A DNA stretch of 64,000 nucleotides, taken from contig JAQUOV010000004.1 in the NCBI GenBank assembly GCA_028716965.1, positions 8,377 through 72,376 of the forward strand, given 5' to 3'. A program made the position numbers and the translations under genes. This stretch comes from Candidatus Omnitrophota bacterium (GTDB taxonomy: Bacteria; Omnitrophota; Gorgyraeia; Gygaellales; Profunditerraquicolaceae). Below, piece by piece: positions 5,663-58,160 of the stretch (the first letter of the stretch is position 1; the number at the start of each line of letters is the position of its first letter). Under the pieces are notes generated by a model, which was given only the letters and a program-made list of their open reading frames with translations, searched no databases and was not told the DNA's origin.

Positions 5663-6428
5663 AGTTTGTATTTTAAGAAGCGCAGGCACTAATTGCGACA
5701 AGGAGACCGCAGCGGCATTTAAGATTGCCGGGGCAGAGCCGGAACTATTGCATATCAACAGCCTGGTAAGCCGCAAGCGCGTGCTTGGCGATTTCCATAT
5801 ACTGGCCCTTCCCGGAGGTTTTAGCTATGGCGACGATATTGCCTCGGGTAAAATATTTGCCAATGAGTTAAGGTTTAAGCTGGCGGATTCCCTGCGCCAG
5901 TTCATCGCCGAAGGAAAACTGATCATCGGTATCTGCAATGGTTTCCAGATTTTAGTTAAAAGCGGGCTTCTCCCGGGGTCTAAAGACCTAAAACAAGATA
6001 CCAGCCTGATCATCAATGACTCCGGTAAATTTGAAGCACGCTGGGTGTATCTTAAGCCGGGTGGAAAATGTGTATGGACAAAGGGCTTAAAGAAGGCCAT
6101 CTATCTTCCCGTAGCCCACGGGGAAGGAAAATTTGTCACGCAGGATAGATCTGTATTGAACCGGCTTAAAAAGAACAGGCAGGTTGTTTTTCAATATTGC
6201 GACGCAGAAGGCAGATTGTGCGCTTACCCGGGCAACCCGAACGGCTCAATAGAAAATATTGCCGGCATCACTGACCAGACAGGCAGGATCCTGGGTTTGA
6301 TGCCGCATCCGGAAAGGCATATCTACGCAGCAGCTCATCCGCGTAAATGGGGATTAAGATTTAACCGTGAAGGGGACGGCTTACAAATATTCAGAAATGG
6401 AGTGGAATATGTTAAAGAAAATCTGTGA
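5649..6428 (+). CDS. purQ: Phosphoribosylformylglycinamidine synthase, glutamine amidotransferase subunit
   Basis: 259 aa. Class I GATase with nucleophile in GICNGFQIL; N-terminus MKKIKVCILRSAGTNCD is typical of PurQ. Confidence 0.9.
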   Translation: MKKIKVCILRSAGTNCDKETAAAFKIAGAEPELLHINSLVSRKRVLGDFHILALPGGFSYGDDIASGKIFANELRFKLADSLRQFIAEGKLIIGICNGFQILVKSGLLPGSKDLKQDTSLIINDSGKFEARWVYLKPGGKCVWTKGLKKAIYLPVAHGEGKFVTQDRSVLNRLKKNRQVVFQYCDAEGRLCAYPGNPNGSIENIAGITDQTGRILGLMPHPERHIYAAAHPRKWGLRFNREGDGLQIFRNGVEYVKENL

Positions 6429-7884
6429 ATACAAGCGATGCCTGCCTGCCGACAGGCAGGAGCCAAAAGAGTATTGCGGGTTATTCGGGATAACTAATAA
6501 CAGGCAGGCAGTCTGGCTTACCTACCTTGGGCTTTTTGCCCAGCAGCACCGCGGCCAGGAGGCATGCGGGATCGTGGCGAATAACCAGGGGGTGCTTTCC
6601 ATCCATAAGAATATGGGGTTGGTCAGCGATGTATTCAGCGAGCAGGTGTTAAGCCGCCTGAAAGGGAATATAGCGGTGGGGCATGTGCGGTATTCTACTA
6701 CCGGCTCAAGCGTGTTAAAAAACTCCCAGCCGCTTTTGATTGACTACGCCAACGGCTCTATCTGTATCGCGCATAACGGCAACCTGGTGAATTCGCTTGA
6801 GCTGCGCCAGAAGCTTGAGAAAAGCGGTTCCATCTTTCAGACTACAACCGATTCGGAACTGGTCATCCATCTTATGGCGCGCAGCAATAAGCGCAGCCTG
6901 GAGGACAGCCTGGTTTATGCTTTAAAAAGGGTCAAAGGCGCCTATTCACTGGTATTGATGAACAGCAATTATTTAATCGGCGTAAGGGACCCGCACGGTT
7001 TCCGGCCGCTGGTTTTAGGGAAACTCGGCGCTTCATACTGCCTTGCTTCGGAGACTTGCGCTTTTGATTTGATCGGCGCTAAATTCGTGCGCGAGATTGA
7101 GCCCGGGGAGATAGTGCTGATTAATAACCAGGGTGATATAAAATCAATCAAGCCGAAAGAGCTGCTTGCCTGCCACCATTCGTTTTGTATCTTTGAGCAT
7201 GTTTATTTTTCCCGGCCGGATTCCAATGTCTTCGGCGAGACCGTGCATACTGTCCGGCGCAAGCTGGGCGCGCGATTAGCCAAAGAATACCCGGTAGAAG
7301 CTGATTTTGTGGTCCCGGTGCCGGACTCCGGGTTTTCAGCGGCCCTGGGCTATTCGCAGGAATCAGGTATCCCGTTGGAGATGGGGATCATCCGCAACCA
7401 TTATGTGGGCAGGACATTTATCCAGCCGGCGCAGGATTCCCGGGATATGGGGGTGCGGGTAAAGTTTAATATTTTAAAGGATATCCTTAAGGGCAAGCGC
7501 ATTATCGTAGTTGATGATTCTATTGTGCGCGGCACAACTTCAAAGATCCGCGTGCGCAACCTGCGTAAGGCCGGGGTAAAAGAGGTACATTTGAGGATCT
7601 CCTGCCCGGCGCACCGCTTTCCGTGTTTTTACGGGATTGATTTCCACCGCGCAAGCGAACTGATCGCAAATAAATACGATAGCCTGGAGAAGATCAGTAA
7701 ATATCTTGAGGTAGACAGCCTGGGATATTTAAGCTTAGAAGGGATGTTGGGCTGCCTTAAGCATCCTAAGGAAAGCTATTGCGCTTCATGCTGGACAGGA
7801 AAATACCCGTTAAGGCCGGAGAAGAGGCATAGTAAGTTTTCTTTAGAGAGAAGCTGCTGCGGACAGGGGGAGTTACAAGTATAA
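6409..7884 (+). CDS. purF: Amidophosphoribosyltransferase (propeptide-containing, Fe-S type)
   Basis: Ntn-hydrolase catalytic Cys in CGLFGI after a short propeptide. PRTase motif IIVVDDSIVRGTT. C-terminal Cys cluster (CASCWTGKYP) as in B. subtilis-type PurF. Start chosen at ATG 6409; the ORF is open from 6367. Confidence 0.88.
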   Translation: MLKKICEYKRCLPADRQEPKEYCGLFGITNNRQAVWLTYLGLFAQQHRGQEACGIVANNQGVLSIHKNMGLVSDVFSEQVLSRLKGNIAVGHVRYSTTGSSVLKNSQPLLIDYANGSICIAHNGNLVNSLELRQKLEKSGSIFQTTTDSELVIHLMARSNKRSLEDSLVYALKRVKGAYSLVLMNSNYLIGVRDPHGFRPLVLGKLGASYCLASETCAFDLIGAKFVREIEPGEIVLINNQGDIKSIKPKELLACHHSFCIFEHVYFSRPDSNVFGETVHTVRRKLGARLAKEYPVEADFVVPVPDSGFSAALGYSQESGIPLEMGIIRNHYVGRTFIQPAQDSRDMGVRVKFNILKDILKGKRIIVVDDSIVRGTTSKIRVRNLRKAGVKEVHLRISCPAHRFPCFYGIDFHRASELIANKYDSLEKISKYLEVDSLGYLSLEGMLGCLKHPKESYCASCWTGKYPLRPEKRHSKFSLERSCCGQGELQV

Positions 7885-7898
7885 AATAAGTATTTAGT

Positions 7899-7971
7899 GT
7901 TTTACGGGTCCTGTCGAGCCTTGTTTTCGCCGCACATTGCGGCTCAAATCAAGTCTCGCCACCCGTAAAAC
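7899..7971 (+). repeat. Family B 73-nt nested-hairpin repeat, copy 1 (purF-purM intercistronic)
   Basis: Outer stem GTTTTACGGGT/ACCCGTAAAAC, second stem CGAGCCTTG/CAAGTCTCG, inner hairpin GCCGCAcatTGCGGC. Second copy at 19476-19548. Confidence 0.7.
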
Positions 7972-10393: not shown

Positions 10394-10613
10394 CATTAAT
10401 GAATCTGTCGTTTTGCTCGCTCAGGTCGATTTTTTAACGCCAATGCTCTTTCGCATTTCGGTGGCTGCGGAACTTGCGGTATTTGCTCTTGCAAATACCG
10501 CTCAAGCATCCTCGCCATCCCCGTTTTGTCGCTTCGCTCCACGGGGATACCCGAAATGCTCAAGCTCCATTGGCTAAAATCGACATTCACTCGCAATAAC
10601 GCCAGATTCATTT
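10394..10613 (+). repeat. Family C MITE-like element, copy 1 (about 220 bp, about 45-bp imperfect TIRs)
   Basis: Head AATGAATCTGTCGTTTTGCTCGCTCAGGTCGATTTTTTAACGCCAATG is the inverted complement of tail CATTGGCTAAAATCGACATTCACTCGCAATAACGCCAGATTCATTT. Central hairpin TCCCCGT...ACGGGGA. About 85% identical to the copy at 36728-36944. Confidence 0.7.
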
Positions 10614-10624
10614 AGGCGTATTTA

Positions 10625-10705
10625 AGAGATAAGTTGTATTGTGCACATTTGCCGAAAATTTTCTAATGCGCGCTCCGCCAAAACCGCAAAACTTGATGAT
10701 TTTTA
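10625..10705 (+). repeat. Partial family D element (right-half fragment)
   Basis: GCACATTTGCCGAAAATTTTCTAATGCGC matches the D motif GCACACTTTTGCCGAAAATCTTCTAATTGTGCC seen in copies at about 29860-30085 and 54165-54395. Confidence 0.5.
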
Positions 10706-16468: not shown

Positions 16469-16926
16469 GCGCGCTATTTATTGCTTCCGACCACGCAGGG
16501 TTTATTTTAAAAGAGAGGTTAAAAGAATACCTTAATAAAAATGGGCTTGCCATAAAAGACCTGGGCACATATTCAAAGGAGCGCTGCGATTATCCAGAAT
16601 ATGCCTATGGTTTGGCTAAGGCTGTTGCTTCAGGTAAGAATAACCGCGGGGTGCTTATTTGTAAAAGCGGTATAGGAAATTCTATCGTCGCCAACAAGGT
16701 CCCGGGAGTGCGCGCTGCGCTTTGCTATAACCTTAAGGCAGCAAAACTTAGCCGTCAGCATAATGATAGTAATGTTTTGGTGCTGGGTTCGGCTTTTGTC
16801 AGGACGGATTTAGCCAAGAGGATGGTTCCTGCTTGGTTAAACACGCAGTTCCTGGGAGGAAGGCATTTAAGAAGGGTAAAATTAATCAACAGCATTGAGA
16901 AAAAGATAAGGAGAGGCGCCAAGTGA
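16465..16926 (+). CDS. rpiB: Ribose-5-phosphate isomerase B
   Basis: 153 aa. RpiB/LacAB motifs [23 protein letters not shown]. Confidence 0.85.
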
Positions 16927-18170
16927 AACATTTAAAACAGATTGACCCGGAGATTTACGCAGCGATTAAGAAAGAGATGCAGCGCCAGGATGAGAACCTT
17001 GAGTTGATCGCCTCGGAGAACTTTGCTTCTTTGGGAGTGTTGGAGGCCCAGGGCTCTGTGTTGACCAATAAATATGCCGAGGGATATCCCGGCAGGCGCT
17101 GGTATGGCGGGTGTGAATATGTAGATACCGCAGAGAGCCTTGCTATTGAACGGGCCAAAGCAATATTCGGCGCAGAGCACGCCAATGTCCAGCCGCATTC
17201 AGGTTCGCAGGCGAATATGGCGGTGTATTTTGCGGCGATAAAACCGGGAGATACGGTCCTGGCTATGGATTTAGCTGCCGGAGGCCACCTCACCCACGGC
17301 CACCCGCATAATTTCTCCGGGATGTTTTATAAGATCGTCGGTTACGGCGTGGACAGGAAAAGCGAAACCCTGGATTATGATGCCATCCTTGAGCTTGCCA
17401 AAACACATAAGCCGAAGATGATACTGGCAGGCGCCTCGGCGTATCCAAGGACAATTGATTTTAAGAAGTTCCGCCAGATCGCTGACAGCGTCGGGGCGTA
17501 TCTATTCGTGGATATGGCGCATATCGCAGGGCTGGTCGCTGCCGGGGTTCATCCTTCTCCCGTACCTTACGCGGAGTTTGTTACCTCTACTACGCATAAG
17601 ACCTTGCGCGGCCCGCGCGGCGGGTTTATCCTTTGCAGGAAAGAGTTTGCCAAGAAAATAGACAGCCAGATCTTCCCCGGGATACAGGGGGGGCCGTTGA
17701 TGCATGTGGTTGCCGCCAAAGCCGTGGCATTTGCCGAGGCAATGACGCCGGAGTTTAAGCAATACCAGGCCCAGCTGGCTGAAAATGCCAGGGAGTTAGC
17801 AAAGGCTTTGGAGAAAAAAGGCTTTCGCATCGTATCCGGAGGCACGGATACGCATTTAATGCTCGTAGATCTGAATGCCAAAAATATTACCGGCTCCGAT
17901 GCTTCAAGGATTTTAGGGCAGGTAAATATTACGGTAAACAAGAACCTTATACCTTTTGATCAGAAGTCTCCGCTTGTAACAAGCGGTATCCGCCTGGGCA
18001 CGGCGGCAGTAAGCACGCGCAAGATGAAAGAGGCGCAGATGCAGAAGATCGCCGGTTTAATCAACGATGCGCTGGAAAACCAGGCCGATATGAATAAATT
18101 AACTGAAATCAAAAAGGAAACGATCGCTTTAGCCAGAAAGTTTCCGCTATATCCGGAGCTATTGAAATAA
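16923..18170 (+). CDS. glyA: Serine hydroxymethyltransferase
   Basis: 415 aa. PLP-site [19 protein letters not shown] and [10 protein letters not shown] motifs. Confidence 0.92.
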
Positions 18171-18251
18171 TATGAACCCCTCGCCTTCTGTAAATTTAAC
18201 TATTGAAGCCATGGGGTTTAATGAGCTGACTAAGGAAGAAGGTGCGGGATG
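18171..18251 (+). repeat. Family A junction element, copy A1 (short derivative of the GIY-YIG cassette)
   Basis: Left arm TATGAACCCCTCGCCTTCTGTAAATTTAAC, right arm GAAGGTGCGGGATGA. Contains in-frame micro-[29 protein letters not shown] whose TGA overlaps ATG 18249 of the downstream gene. Confidence 0.75.
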
Positions 18252-18710
18252 AAAAAGAGCAGAACTATACATAAGCGCCCTACGTGGGATGAATATTTCC
18301 TGGAGATGGCAGGCTTGGTTGCCAAAAGGTCAACCTGCCTGCGCCGCTCTGTTGGTGCGGTATTGGTAAGAGAAAAAAGAATTTTGGCTACCGGTTATAA
18401 CGGCGCTCCCAGCGGTTTGAAGCACTGTGTTGAAATCGGCTGTATACGCCAGCAGTTAAAGATACCTTCCGGAGAACGCCATGAATTATGCCGCGCCTTA
18501 CATGCAGAGCAGAACGCGCTTATCCAGGCCTGCCTGCACGGCATAAGCGTAAAAGGCGCAACTTTATATGCCACTAATCAGCCGTGCGTTATCTGCGCCA
18601 AGATGCTCATTAACGCCGGGATAAGGGAGATCGTAATTGCCGAAGGCTACCCGGACAAAATGGCGATGAGCTTCTTAAGGCAGGCAAAGATAAGAATAAG
18701 GAAAATATGA
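18249..18710 (+). CDS. Deoxycytidylate (dCMP) deaminase, ComEB-like
   Basis: 153 aa. CDA-fold zinc motifs HAEQNA and PCVICAKML; N-terminus KRPTWDEYF typical of dCMP deaminases. Stop TGA lies inside the left arm of element A2. Confidence 0.8.
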
Positions 18711-19011
18711 ACCCCGCACCTTCTTTAAATTCAATAATGTACCATGCGTATCTTCTTAAAAGTAAAAAGAATGATACTTTTTATATTGGATATACAAATA
18801 ATATTGAAAGAAGGTTAAAAGATCATAGCTCCGGGATAGTTGAATATGCAGGGAAATATGTGCCTTGGGAAATAGTGTATTATGAAAGCTCTATTTCCTT
18901 GGTTGATGCTAATCAAAGGGAGAGATCTCTTAAATCTTTTGGGAGGGCATATTCAGGTTTAAAACTTAGAATTAAAAATAGCTTGAATAAGAAAGAAGGT
19001 GCGGGGTGAAG
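18704..19011 (+). mobile_element. Family A full-length element: TIR-flanked YhbQ-like GIY-YIG cassette (putative autonomous copy)
   Basis: Left end ATATGAACCCCGCACCTTCTTTAAATTCAA and right end TTGAATAAGAAAGAAGGTGCGGGGTGAAG are inverted complements (16-bp perfect core ACCCCGCACCTTCTTT). The ends enclose a 100-codon GIY-YIG ORF. Confidence 0.75.
18707..19009 (+). CDS. GIY-YIG nuclease superfamily protein (UPF0213/YhbQ-like)
   Basis: 100 aa. [32 protein letters not shown] matches the GIY-(x10)-YIG plus conserved R/H catalytic region of YhbQ-like proteins. Conserved EGAG near the C-terminus as in E. coli YhbQ. ATG overlaps upstream TGA (ATGA); its TGA overlaps the nrdR GTG (GTGA). Confidence 0.8.
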
Positions 19012-19473
19012 TGTCCGTTTTGCGGATATAAAGAGGATAAGGTCGTGGACTCCCGCGCTACAGCCGAAGAATCGGCAGTCAGGCGCAGAAGGGAATGCCT
19101 GAAATGCGGCAAGCGTTTCACTACTTATGAGTATGTTGAAGAGGTCTCTTTGTTAGTGATCAAGAAAGACGGCCGCAGGGAGGCCTTTGACCGTAAAAAG
19201 ATCTTAGCCGGTATAATCCGCGCCTGCGAAAAGCGTCCGGTGAGCGTGGAAAAGATGGAAGGGGTAGTTGTCCAGGTTGAGCATGCCATCCAGAAGAAAA
19301 GTGACCGCGAGGTTTTGTCCAGCAGGATAGGGGAGCTGGTTATGGAGAAGCTTAAGCAGATTGATGATGTTGCTTATGTGCGCTTTGCCTCGGTCTATAG
19401 GCAGTTTAAGGACGTGGGGCAGTTTATGGTGGAGTTGAGGGATATTTTGGGCAAAGATAAGAAGAAGAAATAG
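19006..19473 (+). CDS. nrdR: Transcriptional repressor NrdR
   Basis: 155 aa. N-terminal zinc ribbon MKCPFCG...CLKCGKRFTTYE plus ATP-cone; GTG start supplied by the element A2 right arm. Confidence 0.9.
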   Translation: MKCPFCGYKEDKVVDSRATAEESAVRRRRECLKCGKRFTTYEYVEEVSLLVIKKDGRREAFDRKKILAGIIRACEKRPVSVEKMEGVVVQVEHAIQKKSDREVLSSRIGELVMEKLKQIDDVAYVRFASVYRQFKDVGQFMVELRDILGKDKKKK

Positions 19474-19475
19474 GC

Positions 19476-19548
19476 GGTTAGCGGGTCCTGGCGAGGCTTG
19501 TTTTCGCCGCGCACCGCGACTCAAATCAAGCCTCGCCACCCGCTAACT
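19476..19548 (+). repeat. Family B 73-nt nested-hairpin repeat, copy 2 (after nrdR)
   Basis: Outer stem GGTTAGCGGGT/ACCCGCTAAC, second stem GCGAGGCTTG/CAAGCCTCGC, inner CGCGcacCGCG. Same 73-nt length and architecture as 7899-7971, with compensatory substitutions. Confidence 0.7.
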
Positions 19549-19587
19549 ATATTTCTTGTCTTTCCCTAAAACATAGAGGAGCCGGTA

Positions 19588-20001
19588 ATGGTTGAGATGG
19601 AGTTGAATAAGATTGTAATTGACGAGAAACGGCATGACCAGTTGATTGTTTTGAAAGAAAAAGGCGGCACGCGGGTTTTGCCGATCGTCATCGGCCTAAA
19701 TGAGGCCTCGGCCATAAAATTAAAGATCAGCGGGTTCAACCCGCCGCGGCCCCTTACGCACGATTTAATTTATACGATGCTTAAGGATTTAAACGCGGAT
19801 GTGGAGAAGGTGATTATCGATAAGCTGGAAGATACCACCTTTCATGCCAAGATCTTTATTAAAACCGGCAGCGGAGATTCAAGGATCATTGATGCCCGCC
19901 CTTCGGATAGCGTGGCTTTGGCAGTGAGGTTCCATGCTCCGATTTTTGTAGAAGATGAGATCGTCAGGCAGTTTGAGTTGTTTGATAAAGATAAGCAGTA
20001 A
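19588..20001 (+). CDS. Bifunctional nuclease family protein (DUF151/BFN domain)
   Basis: 137 aa. LPIVIGLNEASAI...RPLTHDL pattern typical of the DUF151 family. Confidence 0.75.
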   Translation: MVEMELNKIVIDEKRHDQLIVLKEKGGTRVLPIVIGLNEASAIKLKISGFNPPRPLTHDLIYTMLKDLNADVEKVIIDKLEDTTFHAKIFIKTGSGDSRIIDARPSDSVALAVRFHAPIFVEDEIVRQFELFDKDKQ

Positions 20002-24001: not shown

Positions 24002-24928
24002 ATGCAAGAGTCCAGGTTGATTTTATTCGCGTTGTTTATTGGCTTATTCAGCCAGGCCCATCTTTATGATGTATACGCAGAAGAATCCGGTGCTGCGGTA
24101 AAGTCCGTCTATCGCCAGAAGCTCGGACAGGTTATAGAGGTAAAAAAGGAGGAGCTTCCTTGTGAACTGGACAGCTATGTGCGTTATATGCCCTCACAAC
24201 AGGCCCGTGCCCAATCAGGTAAAGTAGCAGTTACGGATTCAGCCTCCGAATTCAGTTATGATGTCAAAATTTTCGGTAAATTGCCGGTGGAGCTGGCGGT
24301 TGGGTCAAGATATATAGGGATAAACAATACAACTGACATAAAGTTTCCGGCGCGCTTGACCCAGTTATCGGTAGGCGCTGAAACCGTCCTGCCGTTCTTT
24401 TTTAATAAGACTTATTTTGTCCTGGGGTTTGCCCCGTCGTTTTACAGTGATAATTGGAATCTTAATTCTTCCTCTTTCCGCATCCCGCAGCGTTACTTCC
24501 TTATTTATCAGCCGGACCAGAAATGGACTTTTATCTGCGGTGTGGGTGTGTATCCGGATTTTAAGGATGTGGTCATACCGATCCTGGGTTTTATCTATAA
24601 GCCTGACTCCAGGCTTACCTTTAATATTGTCCCCAATAAGCCGGAGATCACTTATGATCTAAGCGATAAATTAACCCTGTTTTTTGAAGGGGAAATATCG
24701 GAAGATGAGTTTGAGGTGGACAAGGATAACCTGAAAAATGTGGTGCTTGAATACAATGAAATGCATTTAGGCGCGGGGGTTAAATACCGGGTCAATAAAT
24801 ATATCCAAAGCTCAATCTCCGCCGGATGCGTATTCAACCGTTCCATTAAATACCGGCACGAGGAGCTGGGCAAGGCAGGAATTAAAAACGGCTTATATAC
24901 TGAATTGCGCCTGGATATATCAATATGA
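24002..24928 (+). CDS. Hypothetical secreted / outer-membrane-like protein
   Basis: 308 aa. Signal peptide. Alternating aromatic/hydrophobic pattern with a C-terminal aromatic residue, suggestive of a beta-barrel; no family assignment. Confidence 0.45.
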   Translation: MQESRLILFALFIGLFSQAHLYDVYAEESGAAVKSVYRQKLGQVIEVKKEELPCELDSYVRYMPSQQARAQSGKVAVTDSASEFSYDVKIFGKLPVELAVGSRYIGINNTTDIKFPARLTQLSVGAETVLPFFFNKTYFVLGFAPSFYSDNWNLNSSSFRIPQRYFLIYQPDQKWTFICGVGVYPDFKDVVIPILGFIYKPDSRLTFNIVPNKPEITYDLSDKLTLFFEGEISEDEFEVDKDNLKNVVLEYNEMHLGAGVKYRVNKYIQSSISAGCVFNRSIKYRHEELGKAGIKNGLYTELRLDISI

Positions 24929-25578
24929 GCGTAAATAAAATATTAAAGACTTTAAGATTAATTGAAGCTCAGGTCAAAGATTATATCATCCCTTCGGTTA
25001 CCCGGGTTTCTAAAAGCAAAGACCCTTACCGCGTCTTAATCTCCTGCCTGCTTTCGCTGCGCACAAAAGACAAAACTACGATTAATGCCAGCCAAAGATT
25101 GTTTAAGGTTGCGGACAGCCCGGAAAGTATGCTAAAATTAACTGTTGGAAAACTCCGGAGGTTGATCTACCCTGTAGGTTTTTACCGCAATAAAAGCAAG
25201 GTAATCTTAAGTTTAAGCAGGAGGTTAATTGAGGAATATTCCGGCAAGGTCCCGGGCTCATTGCATGCCCTTTTAGGGTTAAACGGCGTAGGCAGGAAAA
25301 CAGCTAACCTGGTTTTAGGTTTGGGTTTTGGTATCCCGGCAATCTGCGTGGATACGCATGTGCACAGGATATCAAACCGTCTGGGCTGGGTAAGCACAAA
25401 TAATCCTGAAGAGACAGAACTTGCCCTGCAAAAGATTATTCCCAGGGGGAAGTGGATCAAGTTAAATACCATCCTGGTAAGTTTCGGGCAGAATCTATGT
25501 TTTCCGGTTTCGCCATTTTGCAGCAGGTGCGATGTTTACGGGTTTTGTAAAAGAAGGGGCGTGGGTAAATCGCGTTAA
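24925..25578 (+). CDS. nth: Endonuclease III-like HhH-GPD base-excision glycosylase
   Basis: 217 aa. HhH motif LLGLNGVGRKTANLVL, catalytic region VDTHVHRI, C-terminal 4Fe-4S Cys cluster CxxxxxxCxxCxxxxxC. Confidence 0.8.
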   Translation: MSVNKILKTLRLIEAQVKDYIIPSVTRVSKSKDPYRVLISCLLSLRTKDKTTINASQRLFKVADSPESMLKLTVGKLRRLIYPVGFYRNKSKVILSLSRRLIEEYSGKVPGSLHALLGLNGVGRKTANLVLGLGFGIPAICVDTHVHRISNRLGWVSTNNPEETELALQKIIPRGKWIKLNTILVSFGQNLCFPVSPFCSRCDVYGFCKRRGVGKSR

Positions 25579-26921: not shown

Positions 26922-27851
26922 GTGAGGATAAAGAATACGGAGATTAAGGTTGTGCTGGGGGATATTACGGAGATAAGGGCGGATGCGATTGTGAATGCCG
27001 CTAACAACAAGCTGGTTATGGGCGGGGGAGTAGCCGGGGTAATTAAGAAAAAAGGCGGCAAGGTGATTGAAGAGGAGGCGCTTAAGAAGGGGCCGATAGG
27101 TATCGGAGAGGCGGTTGAGACTTCCGCCGGAGAGCTGGCGGCAAAATATGTGATTCATGCGGCGACCATGGGAATGGATTTTAAAACAGATGAAGTGATG
27201 ATCCGTAATGCCTGCAGGAGTTCCTTAAAGCTGGCCGAAGAATTGAAGATTGGTTCTGTTGTTTTTCCGGCTTTGGGGTGCGGCACAGGAGGCTTTCCGC
27301 TTTTGGCTTGCGCAAAGATTATGGCGCAGGAAGTGCTAAGACACCTGCGGGAAGAAAATACCTGTTTAGATGAGATTGTTTTCTGCCTTTATACTCAAGA
27401 TGCGTTTACGGTTTTTAATAAAGGCGTTTTAGGGTATTTGGAATACGTGACTACAAAGTTATCCTCGGGCCCGTTTGTGACGGTAGATGCGATTATTGAA
27501 TTGCCCGAGGGGATTGTAATTATCCAGCGCAGCAACCCGCCGTTTGGCTGGGCGCTTCCGGGAGGGTTTGTGGATTACGGCGAAAGCCTGGAGCAGGCGG
27601 TAAAAAGAGAGGCTAAAGAAGAAACAAACCTGGATTTAATTAACATCAAGCAATTCCGCACTTATTCAAATCCCAAGCGCGACCCAAGATTCCACACTAT
27701 CGGTACGGTATTCATTGCTAAAGCAAAAGGTAGGCCTAAGGCAGGGGATGACGCGGCAGGTTTAAAAATTATCAAACCTGCCGAGATAGAGAAGCTTGAT
27801 TTTGCTTTTGACCACAAAGACATCCTTCATGATTACCTCAAAACAAAATAG
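26922..27851 (+). CDS. Macro domain (ADP-ribose/O-acetyl-ADP-ribose binding) fused to Nudix hydrolase
   Basis: 309 aa, GTG start after GGAGGA. N-terminal macro motifs [21 protein letters not shown] and HAATMG. C-terminal Nudix box [29 protein letters not shown]. Confidence 0.8.
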
Positions 27852-27923
27852 GGACGTTTCTTGACCCAATCGGAGAAGTGTCCCCATAGGGGACACTTCT
27901 CCCTTTAGCTTGAGAAACGTCCC
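27851..27923. terminator. Family E 73-nt palindromic hairpin between convergent genes (likely bidirectional terminator), copy 1
   Basis: GGGACGTTTCTTGACCCAATCGGAGAAGTGTCCCC pairs with GGGGACACTTCTCCCTTTAGCTTGAGAAACGTCCC. Located between the Macro-Nudix stop (27851) and the helicase stop (27929). Confidence 0.6.
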
Positions 27924-27928
27924 TAATA

Positions 27929-29859: not shown

Positions 29860-30085
29860 TATTCGCTTTCCGTCTTTCGCTTCGGCACGAAGATTTTCGC
29901 TGTGTGCTTCGGTTTACGTCTCGTTTCGGCAGCGCAGGTTCCTTACGCAATAAGGCATTGCCTGCACTCGCCGTAAAGCCTTGCACACTTTTGCCGAAAA
30001 TCTTCTCATTGTGCCTCCAGCAAAAGACGGAAATCTCATGGCGAGAAACAAGCCAAGGCAGCTCCGATAGCTAAAATCATTGATT
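29860..30085 (+). repeat. Family D MITE-like long-hairpin element, copy 1
   Basis: TTCCGTCTTTCGCTTCGGCACGAAGATTTTCGCTGTGTGC ... GCACACTTTTGCCGAAAATCTTCTCATTGTGCC ... CAAAAGACGGAA; arms are imperfect inverted complements. Homologous to 54165-54395. Confidence 0.65.
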
Positions 30086-32934: not shown

Positions 32935-33025
32935 CGGATGGTCCTTAAGCCAAGGGAAAAGTGTCCTTTGTAGAGGAAGTTATCCACTACGGGGACACTT
33001 CTCCGATTGGCTCAAGAAACGTCCC
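32935..33025 (+). repeat. Family E hairpin, degenerate copy 2 (after spoVG)
   Basis: Right half GGGGACACTTCTCCGATTGGCTCAAGAAACGTCCC (32991-33025) is the inverted complement of the E1 left arm. Left partner CCAAGGGAAAAGTGTCC is degenerate. Confidence 0.5.
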
Positions 33026-33035
33026 TGCTTAAAAG

Positions 33036-34731: not shown

Positions 34732-36732
34732 ATGTCTAAAAATCTGGTTATCGTAGAGTCGCCTACCAAGGCTAAAACCATAAGCAAGATCCTGGGCCAG
34801 GATTTTAGCGTGGTTTCCTCCATGGGGCATATTATTGACCTGCCGCAGAAAGAATTGGGCGTAGATGTAGATAATAATTTCAAGCCGGAATATGTGATTA
34901 TCCCGGCCAGAAAGAAATTGTTGACCCAGCTTAGAAAAGAGGCCAAGTCAAAAGAGAAGATATATGTGGCAACCGACCCTGACCGGGAGGGTGAGGCAAT
35001 CGGCTGGCAGATAAAAGAAAAGGTCTTTAAGGGCAAGGATGTCCTGCGGGTAAGTTTTCATGAGATTACCCCGCATGCGGTAGGGGAGGCCTTTAAATCC
35101 GCACGTGAGTTTGACGCCAATATGATTGAGGCCCAGGTCGGCCGCAGGGTGCTGGACCGTATCGTCGGATATTTCTTGAGCCCTTTACTTTGGAAAAAAC
35201 TTGCCCGCGGTTTAAGCGCAGGGCGCGTGCAATCCGTAGCCTTAAGGCTGATCGTGGAACGGGAACGCCAGATCCAGGCCTTTACCGCCAGCGAATATTG
35301 GGAGATTATCGCGGAGTTATTTAAGCCTAAGGTCTTCGGGGAGAGTAGTTTTTGCGCTAAACTTGAAAAGATAGACGGTGAAAAAGCGCAGATTAAGACC
35401 CAGGATGAAGCGCAAGCGATCGTAGAGCAGCTTAAGGAAAAAGAGTTTAAGGTCCTGGAGGTTAAGCAAACAGAAAAGAAACGCTATGCCCCGGCTCCAT
35501 TTATCACCAGCACTATGCAGCAGGAGGCCTTTAATAAGCTTAAGTTTAATGCCTCCAAAACCATGATGGTGGCGCAGCAGCTTTACGAGGGTATTGATAT
35601 CGGCGGGGATAACCCCCTGGGCTTGATTACTTATATGCGTACGGATTCTCCGAATACCGCTCCGGAGGCAGTTGCCGAAGTGCGTGAGCATATCGGCAGG
35701 GTCTTCGGCAAGGATTTTGTCCCGGAGAAACCGAATTTTTTCAAGGCTAAAAAATCAGCGCAGCAGGCGCATGAAGCGATCCGGCCAAGCTATGTTTCGC
35801 GTTCTCCGGAAAGCATGAAAGATTTCTTAAGCCACGACCAGTTTCGTTTATATGAGCTCATTTATAACCGTTTCCTGGCCAGCCAGATGAAACCCGCTGA
35901 ATTCCTGGCTACTTCGGTAGATATCTGCGCGGATAAATATTTGTTTGCGGCTAACGGAAGCCATTTGCTTTTTGAGGGGTTCCTGGCTGCTTACAACAGG
36001 ACCGAAGAGGAGGAAAAGGATGACGAGGAGGAGAAAGAAAAAAACAAGAATGTGGTCCCTCCTTTAGAACAAGGAGAGGTTCTCGGTCTGACTAAGCTTG
36101 TGCCCTCCCAACATTTTACCAAGCCGCCTCCGAGGTTTTCGGACAGCTCTTTAGTCAAGGCCCTGGAAGAGGACGGGATCGGCCGGCCTTCAACCTACGC
36201 GCCGATTATTTACACGCTCATTCTGCGCGATTATGTGCGCAGGATTAAAGGCTATCTTAACCCCACGGAGCTTGGTTTCAAGGTCAGCGATATGCTGGTA
36301 GAATATTTCCCGAAGATTATAGATGTCAAGTTTACCGCGCTTATGGAGGATGAGCTGGATGAGATTGAAGAAGGCAGGCTTAAGCGCGTGGAGGTATTAA
36401 AAGAATTCTACGCCCCTTTTAAAGAGAGCCTGGATTTTGCCCAGGCGAATATAAAGAAGGAGGTTATTACTACCGATCAGATTTGCGATAAATGCGGCAA
36501 GCCTTTTATCATAAAGTGGGGCCGGCGCGGTAAATTCCTGAGTTGTTCGGGTTTTCCCTCCTGCAAGAATTCCAGGTCTATTACTTCCGGTGTCAAATGC
36601 CCGGAAGAAAATTGCGGCGGGGAATTGATCGAGCGCAGGTCAAAGCGCGGTTTTTTCTATGGTTGTTCAAACTTTCCGAAATGCACCTTTACCTCGCGTA
36701 CGTTGCCGCAGGATAAGGAAGATACGCAATGA
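34732..36732 (+). CDS. topA: DNA topoisomerase I
   Basis: 666 aa. TOPRIM N-terminus MSKNLVIVESPTKAKTISKILG, active-site Tyr region, C-terminal Cys4 zinc ribbons (CDKCGKP, CPEENCGG). Confidence 0.92.
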   Translation: MSKNLVIVESPTKAKTISKILGQDFSVVSSMGHIIDLPQKELGVDVDNNFKPEYVIIPARKKLLTQLRKEAKSKEKIYVATDPDREGEAIGWQIKEKVFKGKDVLRVSFHEITPHAVGEAFKSAREFDANMIEAQVGRRVLDRIVGYFLSPLLWKKLARGLSAGRVQSVALRLIVERERQIQAFTASEYWEIIAELFKPKVFGESSFCAKLEKIDGEKAQIKTQDEAQAIVEQLKEKEFKVLEVKQTEKKRYAPAPFITSTMQQEAFNKLKFNASKTMMVAQQLYEGIDIGGDNPLGLITYMRTDSPNTAPEAVAEVREHIGRVFGKDFVPEKPNFFKAKKSAQQAHEAIRPSYVSRSPESMKDFLSHDQFRLYELIYNRFLASQMKPAEFLATSVDICADKYLFAANGSHLLFEGFLAAYNRTEEEEKDDEEEKEKNKNVVPPLEQGEVLGLTKLVPSQHFTKPPPRFSDSSLVKALEEDGIGRPSTYAPIIYTLILRDYVRRIKGYLNPTELGFKVSDMLVEYFPKIIDVKFTALMEDELDEIEEGRLKRVEVLKEFYAPFKESLDFAQANIKKEVITTDQICDKCGKPFIIKWGRRGKFLSCSGFPSCKNSRSITSGVKCPEENCGGELIERRSKRGFFYGCSNFPKCTFTSRTLPQDKEDTQ

Positions 36733-36944
36733 ACCTTGTAAATTTCTCGCTCAAGCCGATTTTTTAACGCCAATGTTCTTTCATATTCCGGCGGTTGCAG
36801 AACTTACGGTATTTGCTCTGGCAAATACCACTCAAACAGCTTCGCCGTCCCCGTTTTGTCGCTTCGCTCCACGGGGATTCCCGGAATACTGAAAGCTCCA
36901 TTGGCTAAAATCGACATTCGCTCGAAATTTACCAGGTTCATTTT
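36728..36944 (+). repeat. Family C MITE-like element, copy 2 (inserted at the topA stop codon)
   Basis: Head AATGAACCTTGTAAATTTCTCGCTCAAGCCGATTTTTTAACGCCAATG and tail CATTGGCTAAAATCGACATTCGCTCGAAATTTACCAGGTTCATTT are inverted complements. The topA TGA lies inside the terminal AATGAACC. Confidence 0.7.
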
Positions 36945-42518: not shown

Positions 42519-42572
42519 CGAAGATTGTAATATATTCCCGGGCGTGTTAATATAGAGAAAGTGAGGGGATAA

Positions 42573-45797: not shown

Positions 45798-47715
45798 GGC
45801 CGCAAGCCTCCTTACTTCTTTTCTGCCTTTAAATGTGAGCCTGTTTTTTGGCAGGAGGCTGGGGGACCTTATTTATTTCTTTGATGCCCGGCACCGCGGG
45901 ATCGCCTGCGCCAATATCAGGAGGGCCATAGTAATGAATAATGACTTCCTGCAGGCCCGCAAGATAACACGCAGGGCTTATCAGTCTTTTGGCCAGAACC
46001 TTATAGAGATTTCTTTTATCCCGCGCATAAATAAAAAATATCTTGATAAATTCATCCATATTGAAAACAGGCAGTATATTGATGAAGCCTTTAAAAGGGG
46101 CAAAGGGGTAATCTTTCTGGCTGCCCATGAAGGTAATTGGGAGCTTTCTAATATTATCTGTGCCAACCTGGGTTTTTCGTTTATCCTGTTTGTCCGCGAC
46201 CAGGGTTTCGTGCGGCTAAACGCCCTGCTTAATTCTTACCGGCTTAAGCAGGGCGCAAAGATTATCCATAAAAAAACCGGGCTGCGCCAGTTGATTGATG
46301 TGCTTGAAAGCAACCAATCCATAGGCATGACCGTTGACCAGGGGGGCAAGCACGGAGAGGTAGTGAATTTCTTTGGCAAATCCGCCTCGATGTCTACCGG
46401 TGCGGTGAAGCTGGCCCTGAAACATGACTGTTCCATAATCCCTGTTTTTTATACGCGCATAAAAGGGCCTCATACTAAAGTTATCCTGGATCAGGTTTAT
46501 ACGGTAAGCAAAAGCGGGGACCTGCAAAGGGACCTGCGCGATAACCTGGAGAGGCTGGTCAATATTTACGAGAAATATATCCGGCAATACCCCCACGAGT
46601 ATCTCTGGACTTATAAAATTTGGAAGTATGGCAAAGAAAAAGATATCCTCATTCTTTCCGACGGTAAGGCCGGGCACCTGCGCCAGTCTGAAAGCGTAGC
46701 TAAGTTAGCCAGCCGGAAATCAGCTGCCCGGGGGGTAAAGACTACTTTGTCTATTTGCGAAGTGAAATTCCGCACCAGCCTGCGCAGGTTTATATTCAGC
46801 CGGATGGTTGTACTATGCGGCAGGCATCAATACCATCTCTGCCTGCGTTATCTGCGCTATGCGCTGGAGGCAGCAAGCTGGCAGAGTTTGATCGGTTTCA
46901 AGCCCGATATTGTTATTTCCGCAGGGGGTAAATTGAGCGGGGTAAATTATATGCTGGCTAAAATAAACCAGGCTAAATCAATTGTCCTGATGCGTCCGGC
47001 AGCCCTAAACCCAAAGGGATTTGACCTGGCAATTATTCCCGAACACGATATGCCGCAGGGCCGTGGTTTGGCTTTCAGGAAAAATATAGTACTAACCGAA
47101 GGGGCGCTTAATTTGGTGGATGCGGATTATCTAAGAGAAAGGTCAGAGAGGCTGCAGCAGTCAGGTTTTTTGAAAGGGCCTTTGTTGAAACCCTGTATCG
47201 GAGTTTTGATCGGCGGCAATAGCAGGAAGTTTTCAATTACCCGGCAGGCGATAATAGAACTGGCAGGTCAAATCAAGGGGGCTGCTGAAAAGCTTGATGC
47301 GGATATCCTCTTATCCACCTCGCGCCGTACGCCGCCTGAAATAGAACAGCTGCTTAAAAATGAATTTGAAGCTTATCCGCGCTGCAGGCTTTTAATTATT
47401 GCCAATGAAAGAAATCATCCTGATGCCGTAGGCGGCATACTGGGGTTAAGCAGGGTAATTGTCAGTTCGCCGGAGAGCATCTCCATGATCTCCGAAGCGG
47501 TGGCGGCAGAAAGATATGTTATCGTATTTATGGCCTCCGGCCTTAGTATGAAGCATCGGCGTTTCTTGAAAAGTTTTCAGGACAAGAGGTATATATATAT
47601 AAAACAGGCTGGAGAGTTGTTTAGCTCCATTGAAGAGATATGGCAAAACCGTCCTGAGCTTAACTTTTCTGCGGATAACTCAAGGGTAAGCGCAGCTTTA
47701 GATAAAATACTATGA
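45751..47715 (+). CDS. Lipid A late acyltransferase (LpxL/HtrB family) fused to ELM1/DUF1022-like domain
   Basis: N-terminal half has the HX4D acyltransferase motif (AAHEGNWELS) and EYLWTYKIWKY motif of LpxL. C-terminal ~330 aa resembles the mitochondrial-fission ELM1 / DUF1022 glycosyltransferase-like family. Annotated start overlaps lpxK by 47 nt, so the true start may be later. Confidence 0.7.
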   Translation: MKQNLIADYLSCFLFRAASLLTSFLPLNVSLFFGRRLGDLIYFFDARHRGIACANIRRAIVMNNDFLQARKITRRAYQSFGQNLIEISFIPRINKKYLDKFIHIENRQYIDEAFKRGKGVIFLAAHEGNWELSNIICANLGFSFILFVRDQGFVRLNALLNSYRLKQGAKIIHKKTGLRQLIDVLESNQSIGMTVDQGGKHGEVVNFFGKSASMSTGAVKLALKHDCSIIPVFYTRIKGPHTKVILDQVYTVSKSGDLQRDLRDNLERLVNIYEKYIRQYPHEYLWTYKIWKYGKEKDILILSDGKAGHLRQSESVAKLASRKSAARGVKTTLSICEVKFRTSLRRFIFSRMVVLCGRHQYHLCLRYLRYALEAASWQSLIGFKPDIVISAGGKLSGVNYMLAKINQAKSIVLMRPAALNPKGFDLAIIPEHDMPQGRGLAFRKNIVLTEGALNLVDADYLRERSERLQQSGFLKGPLLKPCIGVLIGGNSRKFSITRQAIIELAGQIKGAAEKLDADILLSTSRRTPPEIEQLLKNEFEAYPRCRLLIIANERNHPDAVGGILGLSRVIVSSPESISMISEAVAAERYVIVFMASGLSMKHRRFLKSFQDKRYIYIKQAGELFSSIEEIWQNRPELNFSADNSRVSAALDKIL

Positions 47716-47794
47716 ACCTCGCACCTTCTAAGTATCCGACTATTAAAGGTATGAGGTTGAATGGATTTATTAAAGAGGAAGGTGCGGGGTGAAG
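47711..47794 (+). repeat. Family A junction element, copy A3
   Basis: TATGAACCTCGCACCTTCT ... GAGGAAGGTGCGGGGTGAAG. In-frame micro-ORF MNLAPSKYPTIKGMRLNGFIKEEGAG. Supplies the TGA stop of the upstream gene and the GTG start of the downstream gene. Confidence 0.75.
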
Positions 47795-49882: not shown

Positions 49883-49958
49883 ACCCCGTATCTTCTCTAT
49901 TTAACTATTGAAGCCCATACGGGTTAAAGAATTGGTTAAGAATGAAGGTGCGATGAAT
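49878..49958 (+). repeat. Family A junction element, copy A4 (degenerate)
   Basis: GATGAACCCCGTATCTTCTCTATTTAACTATTGAAGCC ... AAGAATGAAGGTGCGATGAAT. Frame broken by an internal stop; right arm runs in-frame into the ATG of the downstream GT4 gene. Confidence 0.65.
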
Positions 49959-54164: not shown

Positions 54165-54395
54165 GCGAAAATTTCGCCGTGCGCTAAGCTTTCCGTCTTT
54201 TGTTTCGGCACGAAGATTTTCGCCGTGTGCTTTAAGTTTACGTCTCGCTGCGGCTGCAGTATACTTACGCTGGTAAGATTCTGCCTTCGCTCGACGTAAT
54301 TCCTCGCACACTTTTGCCGAAAATCTTCTAATTGTGCCTTAAGCAAAAGCCGTAAATCTTAGCGAGAGGCAAGTCTCGGCAAACCCGCTAAATTG
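54165..54395 (+). repeat. Family D MITE-like long-hairpin element, copy 2
   Basis: CGCTAAGCTTTCCGTCTTTTGTTTCGGCACGAAGATTTTCGCCGTGTGC ... GCACACTTTTGCCGAAAATCTTCTAATTGTGCC ... CAAAAGCCGTAAATCTTAGCG. Homologous to 29860-30085. Confidence 0.65.
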
Positions 54396-54426: not shown

Positions 54427-55374
54427 GTGCTAAAATCATTGTCTATGATTGATCCAAAGAAGGTAAAAAGGTATTCTATCAAAACACGCTTCAGTAAGGT
54501 GAATGAGAAGGATTTTGCACTTAAGCCGGCTAAACTTAAGAGCTTCCGCGCCTTCTTAGATTCCTTGCCGGATATCCTTAAAGCCAGGGATTTGCGCGCC
54601 CTTTCTGCGGATGTCGCCTCGGCAGCCAGGAAGAAGAAGGCGGTGATTTTGATGGCCGGCGCGCACGTGATTAAGTGCGGGCTTAACCCGGTGTTAATAG
54701 AGCTGATGAGAAAGAAGGTAATCAGCTGTATCTGCCTTAACGGCGCCGGGATCATCCATGATTTTGAGATTGCCTTTCAGGGCAAAACATCCGAAGACGT
54801 TGCCGAAAACCTTAAAAACGGCAGTTTCGGCATGGGCAAGGAAACCGCGGATTTTATTAATCAGGCGGTTAAAGACGGGGTGAGCGAAGGCTTAGGCCTG
54901 GGCAGTTCCGTGGGAAAGATGATCTCCGATGAGAAATTGGCGTATAAGGATTTGAGCCTGCTTTATAACGCTTATAAATATAATCTGCCGGTATGCGTTT
55001 TCGTGGGGATCGGTACGGATATCATCCATCAGCATCCTTCATTTGACGCCGGTTTAACCGCCGAAGGCTCGTTGCGCGATTTCCACACTCTCGTCGAGAA
55101 GATAAGCTCGTTAAACAAAGGGGGAGTGGTTTTAAATTTTGGTTCAGCGGTGCTTTTACCCGAAGTATTCTTAAAAGCGCTTAACCTGGCGCGAAACCTC
55201 GGGAATAAAGTCAAGGATTTTACTACCGCCAACTTTGATATGATTTATCATTACCGGCCGGCGCAGAATGTGGTGAACCGTCCTACTCATTCAGGAGGCA
55301 GGGGCTATTACATTATCGGCCATCACGAGATAATGCTGCCGCTTTTAGCGCAGGCGGTCATCGAAAAAATATGA
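54427..55374 (+). CDS. Deoxyhypusine synthase-like family protein
   Basis: 315 aa. Segments CLNGAGIIHDFE, PVCVFVGIGTDIIHQ and GGVVLNFGSAV parallel the DHS/homospermidine-synthase fold motifs. Embedded within the LPS gene block. Confidence 0.5.
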   Translation: MLKSLSMIDPKKVKRYSIKTRFSKVNEKDFALKPAKLKSFRAFLDSLPDILKARDLRALSADVASAARKKKAVILMAGAHVIKCGLNPVLIELMRKKVISCICLNGAGIIHDFEIAFQGKTSEDVAENLKNGSFGMGKETADFINQAVKDGVSEGLGLGSSVGKMISDEKLAYKDLSLLYNAYKYNLPVCVFVGIGTDIIHQHPSFDAGLTAEGSLRDFHTLVEKISSLNKGGVVLNFGSAVLLPEVFLKALNLARNLGNKVKDFTTANFDMIYHYRPAQNVVNRPTHSGGRGYYIIGHHEIMLPLLAQAVIEKI

Positions 55375-55453
55375 ACCCCGCACCTTTTTTAATTTAGTTA
55401 TTATAAGGTGCAGGGGTTAGAATTCATGAATAAAGAGAAGGTGCGGGGTGAAG
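55370..55453 (+). repeat. Family A junction element, copy A5 (degenerate)
   Basis: TATGAACCCCGCACCTTTTTTAATT ... AAGGTGCAGGGG ... AATAAAGAGAAGGTGCGGGGTGAAG. Micro-ORF broken (MNPAPFLI stop); 1-nt deletion in the right arm. Confidence 0.7.
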
Positions 55454-58018: not shown

Positions 58019-58160
58019 ACCCCCGCACCTTCTGTAAATTCAAGTATCAGGAGAATACGGCTTAATGATTTAAATAAGAATGAAGGTTCCGGGATAAGTT
58101 GGTTTGAGGTTAAGATTTAAGATTTGAATGAATTCATAGGAGGAAGGTGCTGGGTGAAGA
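58014..58160 (+). repeat. Family A junction element, copy A6 (with duplicated right arm)
   Basis: TATGAACCCCCGCACCTTCTGTAAATTCAAG ... AATAAGAATGAAGGTTCCGGGATAAG ... GGAGGAAGGTGCTGGGTGAAG. Extra C breaks the micro-ORF frame. Confidence 0.7.

Follow-up and report, generated by a model that had tools for sequence, protein, structure and literature searches.

The inverted repeat at positions 18171-18251 of a 64,000-nucleotide (nt) stretch from a Candidatus Omnitrophota bacterium (contig JAQUOV010000004.1; the whole stretch is called the window below) probably consists of the two ends of a mobile element. According to this reading, the element inserts at a start codon and supplies the downstream gene with a replacement ribosome-binding site. 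A hairpin arises in the mRNA because the ends are inverted; the masking of the ribosome-binding site would therefore be a by-product, and coupling within the operon would be approximately preserved, not newly created. An original prediction had described the arms as a 12-13-bp RNA stem that sequesters the downstream gene's Shine-Dalgarno (SD) sequence and start codon, as a built-in coupling or attenuation device of the host operon. The focal copy, E1, contains a small open reading frame (micro-ORF) and has the following features.

18168-18170, + strand: stop codon TAA of glyA, immediately upstream of the E1 region
18172-18252, + strand: E1, an 81-nt non-autonomous element that equals a micro-ORF of 26 amino acids (aa), between glyA and the dCMP deaminase gene
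18173-18176, + strand: left TGAA target copy, which together with A18172 makes the hijacked host ATG
18177-18189, + strand: left arm CCCCTCGCCTTCT, with 3 differences from the consensus, equal to micro-ORF codons 2-6
18205-18219, + strand: inner segment R' (GAAGCCATGGGGTTT), alternative partner of the left arm (predicted duplex -13.8 kcal/mol, z -2.3)
18237-18249, + strand: right arm AGAAGGTGCGGGA, carrying the SD-like AGGTG; its final base is the A of the host ATG
18249-18710, + strand: host dCMP deaminase gene (dcd, Pfam match), whose start ATG 18249-18251 overlaps the micro-ORF stop TGA 18250-18252
18250-18253, + strand: right TGAA target copy, overlapping the dCMP deaminase start

The region thus reads ...TAA T ATGAA CCCCTCGCCTTCT ... 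AGAAGGTGCGGGA TGAA AAAG.... The inverted repeat was found where it had been predicted, but the E1 stem has 11 pairs (3 + 8, one G-U among them). The perfect 13-mers quoted for it belong to a 303-nt neighbor, E2L, which is the only place in the window that matches the consensus arms CCCCGCACCTTCT / AGAAGGTGCGGGG exactly. Furthermore, instead of ending 0-2 nt ahead of the start, as had been proposed, the right arm overlaps the start codon by one base, the A of the ATG at 18249 in E1 and the G of the host GTG in other copies, and the flanking A-U pair of the E1 stem also covers the second base of the start codon. The right strand does carry an SD-like sequence; the best match is narrower than the proposed GAAGGTG and consists of AGGTG, 4 nt ahead of the start. 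Native genes of the window use AAGGAG/GGAGG. E1 is an old, decayed copy.

Insertion at start codons

A collection of copies was obtained by scanning a 17-mer of the arm against GTDB genomes and metagenomes, and all counts refer to copies among the matches listed. There were at least 153 distinct oriented copies in at least 125 loci, nearly all from Omnitrophota. The arms are 13-14-bp terminal inverted repeats of very small mobile elements across Candidatus Omnitrophota. In 126 of the 153 copies a long ORF begins exactly at the NTG that overlaps the terminal TGA. The 27 exceptions are mostly nested or tandem insertions, several of them into the internal ATGAATAA of another copy, and the rest lie at contig ends or are unexplained. 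On the other side of the element, the upstream ORF terminates at the TGA of the left ATGAA in 64 copies, and most others stop 3-20 nt upstream.

Orthologous junctions lacking the element were identified by tblastn between loci. Their sequences were reproduced by deleting the element together with one TGAA. Such occupied and empty pairs are L048/L171, L105/L224, L050/L182, L130/L210 and E1/L147. For instance, L048 reads ...TAA A|TGAA|[element]|TGAA|TATTCC, and its empty counterpart L171 reads ...TAG ATGAATATCCC. L147 is empty at the glyA|dcd junction orthologous to E1, and L210 at the junction orthologous to E5, another copy of the window. The comparison of occupied and empty junctions thus demonstrates insertion at a start-codon NTGAA with duplication of TGAA. 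When internal orientation was scored, 81 copies were in sense, 2 appeared to be reversed and 52 were ambiguous. In the window, all six insertions are at start-codon NTGAA sites, although about 30 intergenic NTGAA sites away from starts were available.

These data bear directly on the idea that the hairpin is an adaptation that regulates the host operon and makes the downstream gene dependent on upstream translation by coupling or attenuation. We consider this highly improbable. More than 150 unrelated junctions carry these arms, the target is duplicated and orthologous sites without the element exist, so that a device built into one operon does not describe them. In its favor, several junctions are occupied in many diverged genomes by copies with near-perfect arms. 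The dcd|nrdR and lpxL|glycosyltransferase junctions were compared in the window and in L147, L012, L146, L114, L123, L013, L180 and L177; copies of 303, 289, 132, 96, 85, 81 and 79 nt were observed. At dcd|nrdR, L147 carries a copy of 303 nt, L012 carries one of 85 nt, and the gap in L146 measures 121 nt.

Elements were also seen next to and inside each other. Tandem elements (L044 7434-7613, L006 5191-5366, L133 6906-7074 and L170) share a single TGAA, as expected for insertion into the duplicated target of another copy, and the arm variants differ inside one tandem pair (L044). A small palindrome (GGGGACGGTTCTCTTAAAAAAAGAGAACCGTCCCC) is repeatedly nested within elements of the GIY-YIG type described below (L025 4965-5165, L061 with two copies, and L101; also L164 and L165), and a separate insert of about 150 nt (GATAGGGCGTCACAAAAGTGCCGCCC...) is common to L114 and L142. 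The GIY-YIG-type elements are themselves targets of other small repeats.

A subterminal inverted pair is located at fixed offsets within the element. ATTCA lies 5 nt inside the left arm in 61 of 135 copies, and TGAAT starts 10 nt before the right arm in 47 of 135; TGAA is present anywhere in the 16-nt stretch before the right arm in 73 of 135. An example in the window is the pair 18728-18733 and 18982-18987. The subterminal TGAAT equals the insertion target and is where nested copies insert, and it may serve as a guide or as a target mimic.

The six copies of the window, five short and one of full length, share the pattern ATGAA-arm...arm-TGAA. The motif AGAAGGTGCGGGG (at most 2 mismatches) has 15 matches in the window compared with 1.83 expected, and 0 of 100 shuffles reached 15. 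Repeat finding grouped 89-nt units at 18165, 47705, 55364 and 58009 and end fragments at 18702 and 18977.

The full-length element, its nuclease and its ends

Full elements are about 290-303 nt long. Their sole ORF encodes a GIY-YIG nuclease of about 100 aa of the UPF0213/SLX1 type, and the terminal codons of this ORF (MNPAPS... and ...EGAG*) are the arms themselves. The full-length copy of the window is E2L.

18707-19009, + strand: E2L, full-length 303-nt copy with a 100-aa GIY-YIG nuclease ORF (MNPAPS...EGAG*)
18712-18724 and 18994-19006, + strand: perfect arms of E2L, with TGAA copies at 18708-18711 and 19007-19010; the nrdR GTG is at 19006

E2L lies between dcd and nrdR, in a neighborhood of serine hydroxymethyltransferase, dCMP deaminase and NrdR genes (Pfam). 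The zinc ribbon of NrdR aligned from residue 1, and therefore the GTG at 19006 is the true nrdR start. The E2L protein contains the Pfam domain PF01541 (GIY-YIG, E 3e-12). Its nearest solved structures are UPF0213 BH0048 (E 2e-11) and SLX1, the best matches being 1zg2, 1ywl and SLX1. SLX1 is a structure-specific nuclease, and the E2L protein is a bare 100-aa catalytic domain without a DNA-binding domain. An identical protein is annotated in a Candidatus Omnitrophica metagenome-assembled genome, and 48 homologues retain the MNPAPS and EGAG termini, down to 47% identity. The wider GIY-YIG protein family is very large; several related clusters carry arm-encoded termini in some reading frame. Residue 41 of the E2L nuclease is Ser, in contrast to the Asn of more than 90% of homologues (DHSSG versus EHNSG); the copy may be degenerate in part. 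The arms of a diverged full element are TCCCGCCCCTCCT / AGGAGGGGCGGGA; its TGAA flanks are retained, and the right arm contains a perfect AAGGAGG, a better SD.

Copies of 120-150 nt are intermediate in size and hold differing pieces of the GIY-YIG ORF. The 81-nt class matches both ends of the ORF: some 35 nt from the 5' end are fused to some 45 nt from the 3' end. Taken together, these matches identify the short copies as internal-deletion derivatives. The micro-ORF was rejected as a conserved peptide because the 81-nt class lacks codon-periodic conservation: the entropies at codon positions 1, 2 and 3 are 1.05, 1.00 and 1.13. The family therefore resembles miniature inverted-repeat transposable elements (MITEs) in having terminal inverted repeats, target duplication with empty sites, many dispersed copies, and short copies without coding capacity. 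Long copies with identical ends and deletion intermediates exist as well, and would be the putative parent; their only ORF is the GIY-YIG nuclease, which is not a recognized transposase. The remaining copies of the window are the following.

47712-47792, + strand: E3, 81-nt copy, with an lpxL/ELM1-domain gene upstream and a glycosyltransferase gene downstream
47717-47729 and 47777-47789, + strand: arms of E3; host GTG at 47789
49879-49955, + strand: E6, decayed; left arm CCCCGTATCTTCT at 49884-49896, right arm shortened to TGAAGGTGCGA at 49943-49953, host ATG at 49953
55371-55451, + strand: E4, 81-nt copy; arms at 55376-55388 and 55436-55448, host GTG at 55448
58015-58157, + strand: E5, composite or tandem decayed copy of 143 nt; left arm at 58020-58033, distal right arm at 58142-58154, host GTG at 58154

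E4 has a strong inner R' at 55403-55415 and a micro-ORF closed by TAG. Two further sequences resemble the right arm: AGAAAGTGAGGGG at 42556-42568, 4 nt before an ATG at 42573, and AGAAGGGGCGTGG at 25552-25564, at the end of the ORF 24925-25578. No left arm was found for either of these candidate solo right-arm relics, and their status as relics is not established.

Other identities were considered. A phage origin was rejected, as only 3 single-arm matches in viral contigs were obtained, which is the chance level. An identity with repetitive extragenic palindromic (REP) elements and their RAYT transposases (REPIN) was rejected as well, since the only associated ORF is GIY-YIG and no HUH Y1 transposase accompanies it, and since the copies are positioned at start codons and not after genes. 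A free-standing homing endonuclease gene would also be a nuclease gene between host genes, but the copies occupy many unrelated junctions with NTGAA as the only common target. A search of the whole window with Rfam 15 at the gathering score gave 0 matches. No description of the element family was found in the searchable literature, and for UPF0213 (YhbQ-like)/SLX1 nucleases no role in a mobile element, inverted ends or start-codon location is recorded there.

Pairing between the arms was analyzed across the collection. Arms pair better with their own partner (12.30 pairs) than with permuted partners (11.80 +/- 0.05, P<0.0002), and compensatory changes were observed at arm positions 1, 4, 7, 9, 11 and 12. 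Complementarity is thus maintained across subfamilies. RNAalifold showed no covariation within the 81-nt class because the arms are nearly invariant there; covariation appears only across subfamilies. The arms are equally conserved in copies without the nuclease. Among non-consensus arm pairs, leaving out position 1, G-U pairs outnumber A-C pairs 45 to 20 (p=0.003), or 34 to 16 when each distinct arm pair is counted once. Internal positions of the element did not reveal a comparable excess of C>T over G>A. This modest bias points to pairing on the sense strand, either in RNA or in single-stranded DNA.

We propose that the inverted repeat serves mobility at the DNA level. A hairpin or cruciform would probably be cut by the structure-specific nuclease at its TGAA-flanked base, and the resulting non-palindromic 4-nt overhang would account for the fixed orientation. 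In its most far-reaching form, this proposal describes a set of undescribed ultra-small (about 0.3 kb) autonomous elements with a bare SLX1/UPF0213-type GIY-YIG nuclease as their sole protein. They would integrate directionally at start-codon NTGAA sites with a 4-bp duplication, by cleavage at the hairpin base, and would behave as translation-neutral cassettes that take over the initiation site of the host for their own ORF and, across a stop-start overlap, hand an SD and a GUG to the host gene, with the end-to-end mRNA stem tying translation of the host gene to translation through the element. We hold this extended form tentatively, as something close to evenly balanced. Its components, namely an inverted-repeat element, a GIY-YIG nuclease and coupling by RNA unfolding, are of known kinds. 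What appears to be new is their combination: start codons as targets, a ribosome-binding site that travels along, and an element of 0.3 kb with nothing but a nuclease.

Predicted masking and translation through the element

The minimum-free-energy fold contains the terminal stem in all five short junctions of the window. As the original prediction required, most folds were more stable than shuffled controls; E5 was the exception.

E1: -24.2 kcal/mol, z -2.3
E3: -26.2 kcal/mol, z -2.7
E4: -28.6 kcal/mol, z -3.9
E6: -23.7 kcal/mol, z -2.4
E5 (composite): z -0.1, not distinguishable from shuffles

For 21 copies of the 81-nt class, RNAalifold gave a terminal stem of 14 pairs with -23.85 kcal/mol. 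Masking was then expressed as the predicted cost of opening positions -18..+6 relative to the host start. In 106 short copies this cost was 17.2 +/- 5.9 kcal/mol in full context, 7.8 +/- 3.3 kcal/mol when the left arm was held single-stranded, and 6.4 +/- 2.9 kcal/mol at the reconstructed empty site (n=106). The calculations show that in intact copies the host ribosome-binding site is predicted to be about 10 kcal/mol more costly to open and that occupancy of the left arm returns the cost to the native level. Native genes of the window have a cost of 7.9 +/- 4.5 kcal/mol. The values for the window copies, in kcal/mol, are as follows.

E1: 6.9
E4: 9.8
E5: 10.6
E3: 12.5
E6: 13.4
E2L (full-length): 20.5

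The window copies are decayed, and their costs are lower. Sequestration of the downstream SD and start codon is therefore predicted for the family; for E1, where it had been proposed, the cost is below the native mean. The inner segment R' has a further effect. Its duplex with the left arm reaches -12.1 kcal/mol compared with -6.8 kcal/mol for shuffled sequences, and that of left and right arm (L:R) -25.8 kcal/mol. In these models R' is a decoy that competes for the left arm and reduces the net masking.

Attenuation in the transcriptional sense had also been suggested. The right arm is followed by GAAG/GAAA, there is no U-run after the stem, and no terminator-like site was detected at E1 or E2L (+ strand 16500-19800). 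A transcription attenuator or intrinsic terminator is thus ruled out. No promoter-like site was detected on the + strand between 17422 and 19800, and an independent promoter of dcd or nrdR, which would have spoken against coupling, is accordingly not indicated.

The ORF of the element starts at the host's own ATG, which overlaps the TGA of the upstream gene in about half of the copies. At the other end, the right arm rebuilds the initiation site of the host gene with AGGTG, a 4-nt spacer and a GTG overlapping the TGA stop of the element. The micro-ORF has at least 6 codons in 152 of 153 copies, and the left arm forms its codons 2-6. The ATG of this ORF overlaps the upstream stop codon or lies next to it, so that ribosomes coming in from upstream have to open the stem. 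An SD upstream of the element ATG was found in only 25% of copies; hence most micro-ORFs must rely on ribosomes from the upstream gene. The view that translation of the upstream gene or of the micro-ORF melts the hairpin is physically sound, given the predicted drop in cost upon left-arm occupancy. The micro-ORF was thought to run through the stem. This holds for E1, where it is open over 26 aa (18172-18252), but only 55 of 153 copies are open through to the overlap with the host start. The micro-ORF ends at most 30 nt from the host start in 87 of the 152 copies with a recorded stop, and in-frame copies number 80 of 153. Of the 22 micro-ORFs in the 81-nt class, 17 are open, compared with 10.7 +/- 1.7 in column shuffles. 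The enrichment of in-frame and open copies is mild evidence that translation through the element matters. If anything, selection acts on translating itself and not on the peptide.

How the element is tolerated could be explained on this basis. Ribosomes that terminate or re-initiate at the AUGA junction would translate the micro-ORF, and by passing over the left arm they would free the right arm. The mRNA hairpin is probably neutralized in three ways, by ribosomes crossing the left arm, by the R' decoy, and by the GUGA stop-start overlap that enables re-initiation. Relics in Omnitrophota context comprise about 13 solo right arms and 1-2 solo left arms, and in L120 and L098 the right arm alone was kept before the gene. 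What the host retains is the ribosome-binding site and not the hairpin.

Some of these results would suit a regulatory device of the operon. The predicted masking is strong and is relieved when the left arm is occupied, and the geometry agrees with coupling by RNA unfolding. The 81-nt class has an excess of open micro-ORFs, and the arms contain more G-U pairs than A-C mismatches. The relics, however, retain only the right arm, the E1 site is no more masked than native sites, and in over half of the copies with a perfect stem the micro-ORF ends early. In addition, the decoy reduces masking, and no terminator follows the stem.

A second alternative is that the inverted repeat matters only in DNA, as a hairpin, cruciform or symmetric binding site, and that ribosome traffic and co-transcriptional folding of the left arm with R' prevent the pairing of both arms in the mRNA. 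We regard this as unlikely, though as the strongest of the alternatives. The nuclease belongs to the structure-specific SLX1/UPF0213 clade and lacks a DNA-binding domain, arm complementarity co-varies while different arm variants coexist in one locus (the tandem pair of L044), and R' is transcribed ahead of the right arm. The fixed orientation is also not explained by translation, as the reversed 81-nt consensus has no stop codon either (translated by hand only). Stem quality and micro-ORF reach are not associated (see below). It is harder to reconcile with the enrichment of in-frame and open micro-ORFs despite a peptide without codon-periodic conservation, and with the excess of G-U pairs over A-C mismatches on the sense strand. 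Moreover, with a predicted value of about 10 kcal/mol, the penalty is too large to be ignored unless ribosomes help.

The stem might instead have evolved mainly to throttle the element's own nuclease and be vestigial in short copies. Precedent exists in phages, where hairpins sequester the ribosome-binding sites of the homing endonuclease genes I-TevI, I-TevII, I-TevIII and segB of T4 and mobE of Aeh1; in mobE there is also an overlap with the upstream stop codon (PMC2988022). In agreement with this, the left arm is within the ribosome footprint of the nuclease ATG, covering +6 to +18 of the ORF when the first ATG base is counted as +1. The full copy lacks an R' that could compete with its stem, and opening the nrdR ribosome-binding site there costs 20.5 kcal/mol. 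Nevertheless, the hairpin strand with the ribosome-binding site serves the host gene and not the nuclease, most elements have no upstream SD of their own, and the arms are as well conserved in copies lacking the nuclease. We therefore consider this explanation improbable.

Several points weigh against our preferred reading, that the arms are the ends of a start-codon-targeting mobile element whose mRNA hairpin is a by-product. To our knowledge, GIY-YIG nucleases do not act as transposases, and the GIY-YIG protein is taken as the putative mobilizing enzyme solely from being the only ORF of the full element. Searching upstream of the target revealed no motif beyond NTGAA and A-richness that would account for insertion at start codons alone. 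Occupancy of the same junction in many genomes fits ancient insertion with decay in situ and repeated re-invasion alike; if the insertions are ancient, near-perfect arms imply selection on the arms in place. The G-U bias is only about 2:1 and could reflect constraint on the right arm (SD and start) or a hairpin of sense-strand single-stranded DNA. The copies are not phylogenetically independent, which affects the G-U bias, the frame statistics and the shuffle tests, and every RNA effect is a thermodynamic prediction. In addition, 50 of 90 perfect-stem copies at apparently intact genes have a micro-ORF stop more than 16 nt before the host start. A pairing of strong stems with micro-ORFs that reach the right arm was rejected, as no association was observed (odds ratio 0.9, p=0.83). 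Thus read-through is not required.

Related systems, other repeats and implications

Close parallels are seen in the free-standing GIY-YIG/HNH homing endonuclease genes (seg/mob) of T4-like phages. These, too, are small nuclease genes squeezed in between host genes, and the overlap of their start with the stop codon upstream is suggestive of translational coupling. RNA hairpins involve a ribosome-binding site, and the same site cycles between intact, degenerate and absent states (PMC2988022). In contrast, the phage genes each have one long specific homing site, lack terminal inverted repeats and target duplication, and encode enzymes with DNA-binding domains. The Omnitrophota element targets about 5 nt (NTGAA at start codons), occupies 6 loci in 64 kb, and has 13-14-bp inverted ends and a TGAA duplication. 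Its protein is a bare 100-aa catalytic domain, and the masked ribosome-binding site is that of the host gene.

Correia elements of Neisseria and ERIC sequences of enterobacteria are MITEs derived from DDE transposon families. Their insertions, at TA or similar intergenic sites, can face either way, and no start site is rebuilt. The Omnitrophota copies are similar in being short, non-autonomous and co-transcribed with their neighbors, in having inverted ends and a target duplication, and in their potential for mRNA hairpins. They differ in that the parent encodes a GIY-YIG nuclease and that insertion occurs at start codons in sense orientation with an SD and start codon on board. IS200/IS605-type elements encode a HUH (Y1) transposase and have neither target duplication nor terminal inverted repeats. 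With these the family shares a very small size, hairpin-forming ends and strictly oriented insertion beside a 4-5-nt target, and the subterminal ATTCA, complementary to the target TGAAT and 5 nt inside the left arm, recalls their guide-target pairing. Unlike them, it has no HUH protein and possesses both terminal inverted repeats and the TGAA duplication.

Translational coupling by RNA unfolding and re-initiation has been reviewed, with MS2 coat-lysis, f1 genes VII-IX and rpmI-rplT as cases (PMC12548453). As in those systems, the downstream ribosome-binding site is predicted to pair with a sequence inside the upstream ORF, and stop and start overlap as AUGA or GUGA. The known pairings, however, evolved in place for one operon, whereas the Omnitrophota element is a portable cassette at many unrelated junctions, known here from sequence and predicted folds.

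Further repeats were observed in the window. A second, unrelated palindromic family has two 81-nt copies (7885-7965 and 19462-19542, 80% identical), in which GTTAGCGGGTCCTGGCGAGGCTTG...CAAGCCTCGCCACCCGCTAAC forms a long imperfect hairpin. Both lie directly after gene ends (6367-7884 and nrdR) and look REP-like or terminator-like. Two intergenic families are present as well, one of about 200 nt and 83-94% identity (10398-10597 and 36728-36928) and one of about 180 nt and 83-93% identity with a TTGCACACTTTTGCCGAAAATCTTCT core (29865-30045, 54188-54368 and 10639-10683). Moreover, a near-perfect palindrome of 37 nt (TAGGGACGTTTCTTGACCCAATCGGAGAAGTGTCCCC / its complement) at 27849-27925 has a 44-nt inverted partner 5.1 kb away at 32983-33026. 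This pair brackets a gene block and may represent the ends of another element.

For annotation, the family accounts for many calls of 'GIY-YIG nuclease family protein' and for 26-aa intergenic ORFs, and it fixes the true starts of downstream genes. If our reading is correct, the 81-nt cassette would be a natural, portable module for coupling-dependent translation that could be reused. GIY-YIG nucleases would have to be counted among the enzymes behind transposon-like spread in bacteria, and a mobile element would be able to specialize on start codons, surviving by means of a replacement ribosome-binding site and preserved translational coupling. Many ribosome-binding sites and GTG starts of Omnitrophota would then be of mobile-element origin. 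Should the extended form with ultra-small autonomous elements hold, a sizeable share of Omnitrophota genes, about one third of the NTGAA starts in the window, would be translated from starts supplied by the element.

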